From: Bacteroidia bacterium
GTDB taxonomy: Bacteria > Bacteroidota > Bacteroidia > NS11-12g > UBA9320
Direction of reading: 5' to 3'
DNA length: 64,000 bases
NCBI GenBank assembly: GCA_020053795.1
Contig: JAGVMN010000003.1
Location: 4,891-68,890 of the forward strand
Position 1 is the stretch's first letter. Each line of letters begins with the position of its first letter. Under the pieces are notes generated by a model. The model did not search any database, was not told the origin of the DNA, and saw only the letters and a list, made by a program, of their open reading frames with translations. The position numbers and the translations under genes are program-made. Shown piece by piece: positions 58,435 through 64,000 of this stretch.

Positions 58435-61400
58435 TTACCTCACAATCATAATCTTTTGGGTAAACCTGTTCAACTGCTTTGAGTCGTACAATGTGGTTGT
58501 ATAAAGTCCTTCAGGCAATTCTGAAATATCAAAAATGTACCAGTCATTAAACTGTCTGGATAGCGTGCGTTCATAAACCCGTTGGCCTATTGAATTTGTT
58601 ATCTCAATGTGATCATATTCAGACCCGTTCAAGCTGAGTTGCAAGAATGAACTTACGGGGTTTGGCCTAATTAAAGGCACAGCAGTAATACTTTTGCCAT
58701 TCCCGGGTATTTTAATAGCGACAGGCTCAGGGTATTCTTCAGGAAATGCAACCGTACATTCCGGCAAGCTGTCCAAAAACATATGGTCGGTTCCCCTTTC
58801 GAGTATTTGCTGTACCCGATCTATCTGGCAAACCCAATATTCTGCAAGCGGTATTAAATTAGAGTCTGCATTTGAGGCTAAATCCGAATAAAGAACTCCT
58901 GCTTTTGAATAATCGTTTACCAGACAAAATAATCCGGCTTTTTGAAATTTCAAATAGTCGAGTAACTGTATTGCGGCCAAATCCGAAGCAGTATCACATC
59001 TTGCAATCCAATAATTGATCGTGTTTTTGACACTTGCAAAGATGCCATTAGTAGAATCGGGATTGCTGAGAAATGCACTGTCACTGACCAGATAATCACC
59101 GGCAAGCTCGTTCATTTTGGCCAGACCAATATTCAGGTAAGCATAGTCCGTAACCGTGCGGGTGGTGTTCCATTCCGATGCTGTTAAAGCAATTTCCCAA
59201 TCGGGCATTATATCGACAGCTTGCACCGAATCATATTGTCTTGTGAGGATGTCTTCAAAAACATCTTTAACATTTTGAAAAGGAGCCCCATAAGTGATGG
59301 TTCTCGGATTTGTTGGTAATGCAGTTCCCGGGCCTGCTCCAGTGCCTGTGGTAGAACCAGCACAATAGGCGGTTCTCGAATAAGTTGACGGGGTTTCATG
59401 AACACCCGTGATTGTAGCCCTTGAGAATAAAGGCGGAAAGAATGGAAAAGGATCAGGGATATACCATAAATCATAATTTTGCGTGCTTACCGGTAAATAT
59501 GGTGAGGTGTTATCCCACAGGTTTCCCCCTCCTGCTAAATCTCCGTTGGATGCAACACCCCAAAAGGTTAATCCAACCAACGCCATGCCTCCACTGTTAA
59601 ATCGCAGATCGTTCTTTCCTCCGTTCAAATAAATGGGGTTACCGCCAATTCTGATTGTCTGATTAAACGCTTTGCCTGCACCAGCATTGAAGAACACATT
59701 TCCGCCACCGGCCTGACCAAAGGCATTGGCCATAACGACATTGGCCCCACTCGAAACCCTGAACCCATATCCAGTGTTGTCGCCGGTAAACGTTCCGCAA
59801 CGCGACATTAAAGACGATGTGGCATCAAATTCAACTGCATTTCCGGTAACAGTGTAATTGGCAGAAAACATGCTTAAAGGAGAGCTTGAATTCCCCGTGT
59901 AAGATGTCCCAACAACTACATCGCTGATAACAGGATTTGTCAATTTGCTCGGGTAATGAGCACCCTTTACCTTTATTCCATAATCATTATCCCCGTTTTC
60001 GATGAGTGGGTTTTCCAATATTAATGCCCGTCCATCTACCAGCAATCCCTGTCCGCACTCCTGAAGCTCAAGGTCATTAATTCTGAGCGGGAGGCCGCCG
60101 ACATTGTTAAAAGAATTCAAGCCATTGCTGCTTCCAGTAATAGTCAGGTCATTCAGTCCATAGCTGTGCCCCCAAAGATAAATACCGGCAAAGCTGCCGA
60201 TACCTGACATGGGTTCTACTTTCACATGGTTGAAAACACAACGCACGCCCAAATTCAGAACGGCATCTTCGCCCATCTCTATTTTGCCGTTTATAACATC
60301 AAAATGGTTGTTGCTTCCGCTGTTCACAATCCAGAAAAAATGATCTGTTACCTCCATCACTTTTGTAGATGATGAACTCCCTTCAAACCTTATGAAGCTG
60401 CCATTTCCAAATTGAATGCGGTTGGCAGCGGTCTCTGTATTTCCGATATTCGGCATGTTGAACCGCACAAAGCCCAGCCCATTGCTACCGCCCACAGGGG
60501 CTAAGGATGCACCATCTTCTAAAATCAATGTGCCGCGTATTTCAAGAATGGCGTTGGGGCCGTCTAAAATGATTTCGGTGCCCGGGCCTATGCGAAGCGT
60601 AGCCCCTTCTTCTATCACCAACTTGGAATTGTTGTTGATGCGGAGGGTGCCAGGTGGATTGGTCACGCCGGGGGGAATGACAAAAGACAACGAACTACCC
60701 GACTTATAAAGCATCCAGGCATTGTAGGTCCCGCCGTCATCGCCAACTTCAATAAGTCCTTCATTCATAACGGTAACAGAATTGCATACTTCTATAAAAA
60801 TATCAGAATACGAGGGAACCGAACTACCGGGAGCAAACCCCATCCCAAGACTTGTATTGTTCAGTGACAATGTACCGCTATTTATGGTGAGTTCATCACT
60901 AATAGCATCTGTTCCTAAATCTCCAGTGTAATTGAAAGTAATATTGTTGCCAATTGTGGGTACATCCACTAAAATTTCAGCATCATTGTTTTCATTAAAA
61001 TAGAGTTCGTCGCGTTTGGTGTCTTTGTTTTTCTTAATTTTATAATTTGGATAATTAACTGTCACGTATTGACTAAAGGCATCGGAGTTTATAATTTGAC
61101 CTTGATTTGTAGGGTTAAAATCAGAAATCCTGTTTTCATTGAAAACTTCCTTTGTTTCTGCTTTTAATTCGCAATCCAAATAATTTATTAGCACGTATCC
61201 ATATTCAAAAACATTTTGAATAACCGATTCGGTGATAAATGGAAAGTTATGAGGGCCGGTTGGAGGACCAGGATTATCAATTAGTGGGTGACAAATTTGA
61301 AGAAAAGTCAGACTCAAATCATCGGTTCTGCCGGACCTCCAGATACCATTATCATTATGAAGCTCAACGCCATTTATTAAGTTTGGATTTTCGGGTCCAT

Positions 61401-63240
61401 CAAACAAATCAACCATCATGGAGGCGATATTCATTTCTGACAATAAACCATGAGTGACGGTATTTTCAGAATTGAAGTTATTAACTCTATGAACATTATT
61501 TGTTGCTATTTCAGGATTGTCACCGTCAACAATTCGGCTCTCATAATCAAAACGCGATCCTAAATCACGCCCAGCTTCGCTATCAAAGTCCCTTGTAACA
61601 ATATCCATAATCTGCCCAAAGCCTTCGGCCCAGCCTTCGGACCAGGCCAACTTTTCCTGAAAACTATTAATGTCTAATCTGTGATCTCTAAATGGTAATT
61701 GATAATTGAACCACCTGTGTTGCAAATGCCACATCAGGTAATGTCCGAATTCATGATATGGGGTATTTTCTCCCTCATCATCGCTAAAATCGCGATATAT
61801 ACAGTCCTGATTTGAAAGTACCAAGTCTGAAAAACCGGTAAATTTTACCCAATCTCTCAATACATAAAGCATGACGTTATGATCAATTTTCATCGCGTTT
61901 GCCACATCGCCAGGCAACATAAAAGTTGCATTGACAAAGGGTAGTTGCATTATCTCCAGTTTGGAACCGCTACCACCAAGGTTAAGTCCGGGAACATTAT
62001 TGTTGACAAACTGTAAACACTGATGTGCATAGTGGACCAAATGTAGCTTAGTGTCATCCTTACCCGGATGTATTGCACCCATGTTCTGATTGTTGTCGTT
62101 GCCATTGTTGTAATACCAGGTGAACGGATTTGATCGCCTTGAAGTTCCTCGGATGGTCGCTCCAATTCGGTTTCTAACCCTGACCCTCTCACCGTCGTTT
62201 CTTGCAAATATTTTTACATATACTTCCAAATCACCTCCCTCCGGCTGATTGATACCCTGAAAATTCTGGCATACATTTACACTAATGGAGAACAGTCCTA
62301 AATTATCCGGATCACTGAGGTCGCTATAAGTATAACCGCTACCTAAAAAATCATCGGGATTCTTGCCATAGTCTCTGTCCCAAAGTTCAACATATATGCC
62401 TGTGATGTCCATATCTGTGCTTCCATTGCCATTTGTATTAACCCAAGCCTTGATATTCCCTTTGATTGTTCCCTTATAACGCTGGGTATTACCATTCTTA
62501 CACCCGTCTGTTTTGAAACGTTTGGCACCATTCATTATTTCGTTAGAATCAGGGTCATTAAGCCCTTTCATAGGAATGGTATAAGCCAGTCCGGGGTATG
62601 ATAAATATTGCAATGCAAAGGTATCTGTATTGAATTCTTCTATGGTGACATTGCTTTCGGGCAATGAGTCAGGATCAATATATTCCCTGAGGTTGGTATA
62701 TAACCCTTCCTCAGGACTGTCCCATTCACGTTTTAAATCCAGAAATTCATTGTACCCCCATATTTCAAGTGTGTTATATGGGGTGAAATAGATCATAAAT
62801 TTAGATTGACTTGCTTTTTCGTTGCTGTCATTGATTGCTTCGATCAATAAAGTCCGATATCAAAATGGTAAGTTTTCGCTGTTATAGTAAAACATAAGAC
62901 TATCAACGATACTGTCGCCCGGATAAAAAAGTCCGGTATCTACTAACATTGAAGAACCGCCAGCTCACCAGTCAGAGGCAGCGTAATTCGAATCGCCCTG
63001 TTGCTCATAGTCATAGAAATACAACTGTCGGTTCAGGTTAAGCGAATAATGCCAGGCAGTGGTATCTAAAAACCTGATTTTGAATATCACTTTTGCCGTG
63101 TCATTTGATTCGAGTGGGCGTTCCATACTTTGTATTTCGAGTATCCAATTATCTGATGAATGGGTGTTCTGTGCACTTGCAGATAAAGTACTCAAAAGGC
63201 AAATTAGAACGAATGAGATAAATGAATAAGTGGTTTTCAT
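58435..63240 (-). CDS. Large T9SS cargo with zincin-like domain, interrupted by two in-frame TGA codons (pseudogene or readthrough)
   Basis: Signal peptide at 63240 is in the same frame as the 1470-aa ORF. Only stops are TGA 62965-62967 and TGA 62860-62862. HEFGH...AWSEGWAEG motif, CTD IRPNPV...QKIMIVR. Confidence 0.75.
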
Positions 63241-63252
63241 GATTGAAATAAT

Positions 63253-63906
63253 TTATTGTACAATGTGGTAGTCCACCAGATTCCATATCTGGTTGAAGGC
63301 TGGAAATTCCTTGCGAACAATTCCAATATTTTTAGCCGAATAAATCAAGGTGGGTGTCCAGTTAAATGCAAGATTCATGTTGTCGTTAGCACGGACCACA
63401 TTATTAAATTGCAAATCGCCTGGTCTGTATTTGGAATAAATGGTGTCGAAAATGACAAATTGGCCAACTGGTCCATTGCTAATTGCATAACCCTTTATTG
63501 GTGGTGGGGCAACGAGATAACAAGAAGAGGAGTGTTCTCTATATTTCTCCCTGAAAGTCTGAAGCTTGACCGCATCGTTAGAAGTAATAACTCGTAAAAA
63601 GAACGTATCATTATGGTTTGTCCCAACAATATATGATTTAATTTCTTCCTTGAAGTTGTTTTTTAAACTTAGATGTGGTAATGTTAGCACCTCTTGACTA
63701 TAAACAAATACACTATCCTTTATCTCAGAGTTTTGCTCCTCATAGACCCACCATGTCCCGGGTTTAAAAGCCCCCCAGTCTTTGAGTTCCTGGCTCACGT
63801 GATCGTAATAAGGTTCGGGGTCCTTGCAGTTGTATAAGATGAAAGGCAGCATCATGCCCCAAGCCACCACCCACCAAAAAACCCTTTTTGTTTTTATCAC
63901 TATCAT
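63253..63906 (-). CDS. Hypothetical lipoprotein, co-oriented upstream of the T9SS cargo
   Basis: Lipobox LYN-C after a hydrophobic stretch, FKPGTWWVYE, YSAKNIGIVRKE. Start at MIVIK. Confidence 0.75.
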   Translation of the reverse strand: MIVIKTKRVFWWVVAWGMMLPFILYNCKDPEPYYDHVSQELKDWGAFKPGTWWVYEEQNSEIKDSVFVYSQEVLTLPHLSLKNNFKEEIKSYIVGTNHNDTFFLRVITSNDAVKLQTFREKYREHSSSCYLVAPPPIKGYAISNGPVGQFVIFDTIYSKYRPGDLQFNNVVRANDNMNLAFNWTPTLIYSAKNIGIVRKEFPAFNQIWNLVDYHIVQ

Positions 63907-64000
63907 TCTGAAATAACAGTACAAATCTAAATATAAAAAAGAACATCCGCCATCCGTGTAAACACTGATTTTGCATCCGTGTTTAATACGCTGCTGCATC

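Follow-up and report, generated by a model that had tools for sequence, protein, structure and literature searches.

A giant T9SS cargo gene with two early in-frame TGA codons in a Bacteroidia genome: probably a young nonsense pseudogene

A giant gene encoding a T9SS cargo protein, located on the minus strand at positions 58435-63240 of the analyzed window (the whole 64,000-nucleotide stretch of a contig belonging to a Bacteroidia MAG), is probably a young nonsense pseudogene that was inactivated recently, as judged from the gene itself and its homologs. The gene comprises 1601 codons and a terminal TAA. The frame opens with an ATG at 63240-63238 and closes with the TAA at 58437-58435, 1601 sense positions in all, and its translation is interrupted by two in-frame TGA codons located 105 bp apart. 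The first of them is codon 92 (62965-62967, minus strand, context ACTGG TGA G) and the second one is codon 127 (62860-62862, minus strand, context ATTTT TGA T). Neither a frameshift nor a third stop was found in the 4.8-kb frame. The initial annotation considered this region as one gene running from a signal peptide to a T9SS tail and cut by the two TGA codons only, and this was borne out by the translation of the frame and by end-to-end alignment with homologs; the 4.4 kb beyond the second TGA are indeed intact, the next stop being the terminal TAA at 58437-58435.

Uninterrupted proteins of 1573-1622 amino acids, encoded in related genomes, can be aligned with the frame over its whole length, signal peptide and tail included. 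Full-length intact homologs are represented by G015 (1598 aa), P0003 (1605 aa), L021, L023, L024 and L025. Since homologs of about 1600 amino acids align across both stops, the three open reading frames are parts of one gene, and the region 58435-63240 is better annotated as one pseudogene than as two or three ORFs. The closest full-length homologs display no more than 53% protein identity to the window copy, and a paralogous fragment of the same genome (C8) displays 68% DNA identity to it, with saturated synonymous sites; at such distances no direct dN/dS estimate was possible, and the retention of conserved columns and a relative-rate test were used instead. No close relative of the gene was revealed in JGI metagenome contigs by a scan with six peptide patterns.

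The N-terminus of the encoded protein, i.e., the head of the 91-aa ORF, looks like a canonical-type Sec signal (MKTTYSFISFVLICLLSTLSASA followed by Gln; residues 1-23, 63172-63240, minus strand), as read by eye, and the N-termini of the homologs are equivalently hydrophobic. It is followed by a beta-sandwich domain (approximately residues 30-190, 62671-63153, minus strand), delimited in an AF2 model, which holds both stops. The pLDDT of this domain was 70-87 over residues 30-165, and Foldseek matched it to generic Ig-like sandwiches only; the model of residues 1-780 as a whole, built from only 9 sequences, was of low confidence (pLDDT 54). Further downstream, a HEFGH motif is located (residues 496-500, 61741-61755, minus strand), which appears as an invariant H-E-x-G-H across the aligned family members: H496, E497, G499, H500 and the downstream Glu535 are invariant in the family alignments. 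HEFGH together with Glu535 is a putative zincin-type metal site. No peptidase-family model or PDB entry matched the giant protein in Pfam, NCBIfam and PDB sequence searches; a weak SprT-like match was found in one family member (E 0.15), and the part of the AF2 model with HEFGH is of low confidence. A weak transthyretin-like match was detected in six of the nine family members, and the middle of the protein contains beta-helix-like repeats. In the body, this transthyretin-like sandwich and these repeats are joined by the Ig-like N-domain, the invariant HExxGH...E and a helical region. The protein terminates with a T9SS C-terminal sorting domain (PF18962; residues 1526-1599, 58444-58665, minus strand); its score of 27.7 bits (E 3.4e-6) is borderline but exceeds the cut-off of 27. 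Precomputed PF18962 assignments are available for the homologs P0002-P0004 and P0006; the NCBIfam sorting-domain model TIGR04183 remained unmatched in the giant protein at E<=0.01, and outside of the tail no Pfam or NCBIfam match was found. Taken together, these features point to a putative secreted zincin-like surface protein.

This architecture bears on the suggestion that the stops were selected for producing a signal-less cytoplasmic form of approximately 1450-1470 amino acids by re-initiation downstream of them. In-frame starts are indeed available, namely TTG at 62847 and ATG at about codon 149 (~62796), located 5 and ~22 codons past the second TGA, respectively, and the products predicted by gene callers are 1453 and 1470 amino acids long. 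However, the T9SS tail as well as the beta-helix/peptidase-like body point to a place outside the cytoplasm, and re-initiation would cut the first beta-sandwich domain mid-way, an arrangement observed in no relative; the signal and the N-domain are present in all homologs with examined N-termini. A deliberate conversion to the cytoplasmic form, as was proposed in the initial annotation, is thereby left without support, as no signal-less homolog occurs among the N-termini examined and the T9SS tail would be useless in the cytoplasm. We regard such an origin of the stops as very improbable.

The positions of the two stops were compared with the residues which homologs carry there. In the C8 paralog of the same genome, codon 92 (site 1) is represented by TGG (Trp) and codon 127 (site 2) by TCT (Ser). 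Trp and Ser are also found at sites 1 and 2, respectively, in P0003 and in both copies of the family in the genome G011, while G015 carries Leu and Ser; in more distant members, site 1 is occupied by Leu or Phe, and site 2 by His or Tyr. Cys was never found at either site in the aligned homologs, and no relative examined carries a stop at either of them. Beyond these sites, approximately 35 other loci of the family are free of in-frame stops in the matched part. The alignment thus shows sense codons at both sites and UGA conserved nowhere, with Trp and Ser being the ancestral residues at codons 92 and 127. Consequently, of the two TGG-to-TGA hits assumed earlier, only the one at site 1 stands, where homologs have Trp encoded by TGG; at site 2 the conserved homologous residue is Ser. 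Since the two sites align to Trp and Ser, reassigning UGA to any one amino acid would not bring back both, and this removes recoding as well as the acquisition of the gene from a donor reading UGA as Trp.

The genome itself reads UGA as a stop. TGA terminates 646 of the 1856 ORFs of at least 150 amino acids in this MAG (35%); the ORFs of this size predicted with table 11 occupy 92% of the 2.32-Mb assembly, and when TGA is taken as a sense codon, the ORFs overlap and add up to 137% of the genome. The gene of RF2, prfB, is present (467 bits, above the curated cut-off), no match to selB above the cut-off was detected in the MAG, and the tRNA-Trp has the anticodon CCA. The 22 tRNAs detected in the MAG, which is 74% complete, include neither tRNA-Sec nor a tRNA with UCA anticodon nor a suppressor. 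The giant gene uses 25 TGG and only 2 TGA codons, and its composition matches that of the genome. Codes with UGA as a sense codon (tables 4 and 25) were rejected in view of the presence of prfB, the 35% of long ORFs ended by TGA and the inflation to 137%. A selenoprotein was rejected as well, as the sites align to Trp and Ser, no SECIS-like hairpin was observed, no selB scored above the cut-off and no tRNA-Sec was found. That UGA should be a sense codon here, by virtue of a code change, selenocysteine or import of the gene from a UGA-recoding donor, could be supposed from the facts that both breaks are TGA and that the frame is otherwise open; yet RF2, the TGA-terminated third of long ORFs, the CCA anticodon, the failure to find tRNA-Sec, selB or a SECIS-like hairpin, the 25 TGG codons and the Trp/Ser, never Cys, of homologs all oppose this reading, the relatives being ordinary Bacteroidia MAGs. 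It is effectively refuted already, and we ascribe next to no probability to it. The earlier idea of a recent origin from a UGA-recoding donor falls with it, considering the 25 TGG codons, Ser at site 2, the genome-like composition and the standard code of the Bacteroidia relatives.

With UGA acting as a stop, the two codons might still be passed by ribosomes at a low level. In E. coli reporters, UGA is the leakiest of the stops and is decoded almost always as Trp (PMC11126739, Romero Romero et al. 2024). The leakage is raised by G at position +4 and by G-rich upstream bases, and the tightest termination is provided by T-rich upstream bases together with T at +4 (PMC11126739). According to this E. 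coli yardstick, the context of site 1 would be of the leaky type, and its readthrough with Trp would restore the native residue, while the context of site 2 would be of the tight type, and Trp there would replace the conserved Ser. With a tight stop following a leaky one, the yield of full-length product should be negligible. The +4 base is G at site 1 and T at site 2, and these bases are found at 18% and 37% of genuine TGA terminators of this genome, respectively; the classically leaky TGA-C is rare here (9%). No stable RNA structure was found after the stops: the downstream 78 nt fold no better than shuffled sequences (z of -0.31 for site 1 and +0.51 for site 2). Neither position is a stop in any of the relatives, so there is no sign of a conserved programmed signal.

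Considering these data, functional low-level readthrough by near-cognate tRNA-Trp at both UGAs, with a trickle of the full-length protein being exported and the stops serving as a throttle of a costly or dangerous product, seems improbable to us. It draws on the leakiness of UGA and its decoding as Trp, on the native Trp, the +4 G and the G-rich upstream bases of site 1 (PMC11126739), on the intactness of the downstream 4.4 kb and on the clustering of the lesions ahead of any catalytic part. It is opposed by the tight site 2, where Trp would displace the conserved Ser, by the multiplication of two stops to a very small yield, and by the facts that neither stop occurs in any relative and that stimulatory RNA structure was not found; moreover, sister genes of the family are broken by TAA, and the same genome contains TAA- and TAG-broken genes. 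The programmed readthrough proposed earlier finds no support in the same observations: the stops unshared by relatives, the lack of downstream structure, the tight site 2 and the genes of this genome broken by TAA or TAG. We also give little credence to the two UGAs being a maintained expression throttle or a selected pair of locks. Under such a reading, the leak at site 1 would restore a small wild-type fraction, and the second, tight UGA would set a very low trickle; alternatively, the second UGA would seal a leaky knock-out of a dangerous surface protein, e.g., a target of phages or grazers. In a broader form, early nonsense codons would recurrently switch off the giant genes for T9SS cargo in freshwater Bacteroidia, for which the counts are that three of the five stops of the family lie in the N-domain and that a second TGA-split T9SS giant exists in the genome.

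The age of the lesion was evaluated by the retention of conserved columns and by the relative-rate test. Of the 106 columns without variation among the other five aligned homologs, the window protein retains 98 (92.5%), and the leave-one-out retention for intact proteins was 94% (P0003) and 87.5% (G015). In the relative-rate test over the N-domain, 9-13 unique substitutions were counted in the window copy vs 13-15 in the C8 paralog, depending on the outgroup. A simple young pseudogene had been envisaged in the initial annotation as a case in which relatives keep sense codons and this copy shows relaxed selection. The former was indeed observed, but relaxed selection is undetectable, given the retention of 92.5% and the balanced relative-rate test; this fits a very young lesion and is no proof of function loss. 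The stops would be either very recent in comparison with the divergence of the available relatives, or the downstream part would still be under selection; the first variant needs no extra assumption.

The position and the kind of the stops were considered odd for random decay in the initial annotation. TGA accounts for 27% of single-base nonsense paths in the giant gene, and 10% of its nonsense-mutable sites are located in the first 127 codons. The probability of two TGAs both so early is ~1e-3, a value computed after the fact, which makes the pattern mildly unusual and within coincidence; the clustering is thus mildly improbable, as was claimed, and at the same time still possible by chance. 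Possible causes are chance or one clustered mutational event. It may also have been advantageous to cut a costly exported giant short at an early point, or the second stop may seal a leaky first one.

Nonsense lesions are not restricted to the giant gene in this MAG. Genes in which a Pfam domain spans an in-frame stop (loci L055, L063-L065 and L070) include a type IIG restriction-methylase with TAG inside N6_Mtase/Eco57I (C57:26088-29237), two YhcG/DUF1016 nucleases with TAA (C61:16052-16966 and C76:79357-80442), a radical-SAM gene with TGA (C67:9462-10544) and a PAS sensor with TAG (C1:65317-66192). A second giant T9SS cargo gene of 1745 codons (C19:87645-92879, minus strand; L056/L057) has one TGA at codon 926; its signal peptide and S8 subtilase are encoded at one end and its NosD-like beta-helix and PF18962 tail at the other, a PKD domain is present as well, and no relative covering the region of its TGA was found. 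This list was compiled from a greedy ORF set, with junctions inspected by eye and with the criterion of a Pfam domain spanning the stop, and it gives a minimum rather than a full count; the candidates on C48, C55, C41 and C56 were not counted. The candidates on C22 and C9 were rejected, being separate genes, and a codon-usage score for counting pseudogenes was discarded as too unspecific, since its serial-TGA hits were non-coding frames of real genes. Within the family, stops are found in three further members: TAA at codon 47 in G011 C150 (L002) and TAA at about codon 1065 in G011 C124 (L013), in both cases with GAA in the G011 paralog, and TAA at about codon 255 in L047. The two stops facing GAA imply, by comparison of the paralogs, that G changed to T twice independently in a single MAG from Lake Mendota. 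As all three stop codons break genes in the MAG, and TAA does so in the family, nonsense lesions are general there and not TGA-specific.

An assembly, base-call or strain-mixture artefact, with the dominant population possessing sense codon(s) and the MAG bearing consensus errors or minority alleles, is in our opinion unlikely. It is conceivable for a MAG of 76 contigs with 74% completeness, where the database copies of all three ORF products come from one 79,286-bp contig only, and the single in-frame stops in at least six other genes of this MAG may be either real decay or consensus noise. On the other hand, consensus substitution errors are rare in short-read assemblies, two stop-making errors within 105 bp of a clean 4.8-kb frame would be an odd coincidence, and the similar single nonsense codons of the family in related MAGs from other projects suggest real biology. 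We infer that both TGA alleles are real in the population and not assembly artefacts; any order assigned to the two hits would likewise be an inference.

The nonsense pseudogene, which we consider the probable state of the locus, would have arisen by two independent point substitutions, i.e., TGG (Trp92) to TGA and the Ser127 codon (TCN, most simply TCA) to TGA; the former would be a plain transition, and the latter would be one step from TCA. Both hits would fall within the first domain of the protein, a putatively zinc-dependent giant of the cell surface secreted by the T9SS. Ribosomes are expected to terminate at codon 92 via RF2, releasing a 91-residue signal-peptide fragment, and the rare ribosomes reading through it would halt 35 codons further on, in a strong termination context, so that virtually no full-length protein would be available for export. 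That the other 4.4 kb are intact would then only reflect the lack of time for further decay. The loss may have been neutral or selected, e.g., for shedding a costly or exposed surface protein. Against the pseudogene speak the lack of other damage in 4.8 kb and the location of both TGAs in the first 8% of the gene, which is mildly improbable, as well as the leaky-type context of site 1, where readthrough would restore the native Trp (PMC11126739).

The giant gene is preceded by an intact lipoprotein gene (217-248 aa, lipobox ...FILYNC; 63253-63999, minus strand), which lies 12 bp before the giant ATG. A lipoprotein gene precedes the giant gene also in the homologs with examined upstream regions, and its C-terminus (...AKNIGIVRKEF...VWNLV...IVQ) is conserved; no Pfam or NCBIfam match was found for the lipoprotein. 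A paralogous module, consisting of a lipoprotein gene and a gene of 210 aa encoding the N-domain only, is located on another contig of the MAG (C8:12361-13654; L016 2362-3654), the 68% DNA identity to the window extending over 744 bp. A stand-alone N-domain gene (212 aa) accompanied by a lipoprotein gene was also found in G027, a genome of another family (L015 385-1773). This stand-alone form may thus represent a genuine variant and not a remnant of truncation. The two-gene module occurs in many uncultured Bacteroidia, Cytophagales and Chitinophagales MAGs (window 58435-63999; L003, L021-L025, L015). The T9SS tail is the only part of it covered by a Pfam or NCBIfam model, so that the pair of a lipoprotein (~215-250 aa) and a protein of ~1600 aa with the invariant HExxGH...E and the T9SS tail is an undescribed family.

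Upstream of both paralogous lipoprotein genes, a 31-bp element, ACACGGATGCAAAATCAGTGTTTACACGGAT, was observed (window 63952-63982, minus strand; C8:12257-12287), which holds a direct repeat of ACACGGAT. The two copies of the element are identical at 29 of 31 positions, and the flanking DNA is unalignable. It could serve the module as an operator or promoter. The ORF call of 248 aa for the window lipoprotein apparently starts too early; the element suggests the start at 63906, which gives 217 aa, as the likelier one.

The negative outcome concerning recoding is of use by itself: an in-frame TGA in a gene for a secreted protein of Bacteroidota is not to be taken for recoding unless the residues of homologs, the RF2 and tRNA content and the conservation of the stop all speak for it. 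A by-product of the analysis is possibly worth more than the stops, namely the conserved unannotated module of a lipoprotein and a giant protein, with several independent nonsense knock-outs and stand-alone N-domain variants.

Among known systems, type-A CTD cargo of the T9SS in Bacteroidota is exemplified by the gingipains of Porphyromonas gingivalis and by SprB/RemA of Flavobacterium johnsoniae. The window gene resembles such cargo in its putative Sec signal with Gln behind it, its multidomain body of very large size and the C-terminal PF18962, and differs from it in that its body belongs to an unannotated family and that this copy is broken by two stops; further CTD-bearing genes are present in the genome, e.g., the C19 giant. 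A general description of T9SS cargo proteins of Bacteroidota is given in PMC8400371, and the same work provides a T9SS-linked example of a nonsense mutation, that of gldB in an isolate of Flavobacterium psychrophilum. With the UGA readthrough of E. coli (PMC11126739), the locus has in common that the UGA of site 1 stands in for a native Trp and is followed by G at +4; the second UGA differs in replacing Ser and in residing in a termination-efficient context, the yardstick being that of E. coli and not of Bacteroidota. Bacterial nonsense pseudogenes are reviewed in PMC11078800. In comparison with ordinary pseudogenes of this type, the giant gene is distinguished by having two stops, both TGA, within the first 127 of 1601 codons and no further decay, whereas it agrees with them in the point-mutation origin of the stops, the existence of intact homologs, the affiliation with an often-lost class of genes (large surface proteins) and the similar lesions in the same genome. 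The lesion is of an already known kind, the knock-out of a surface-protein gene, as seen in many bacterial genomes.
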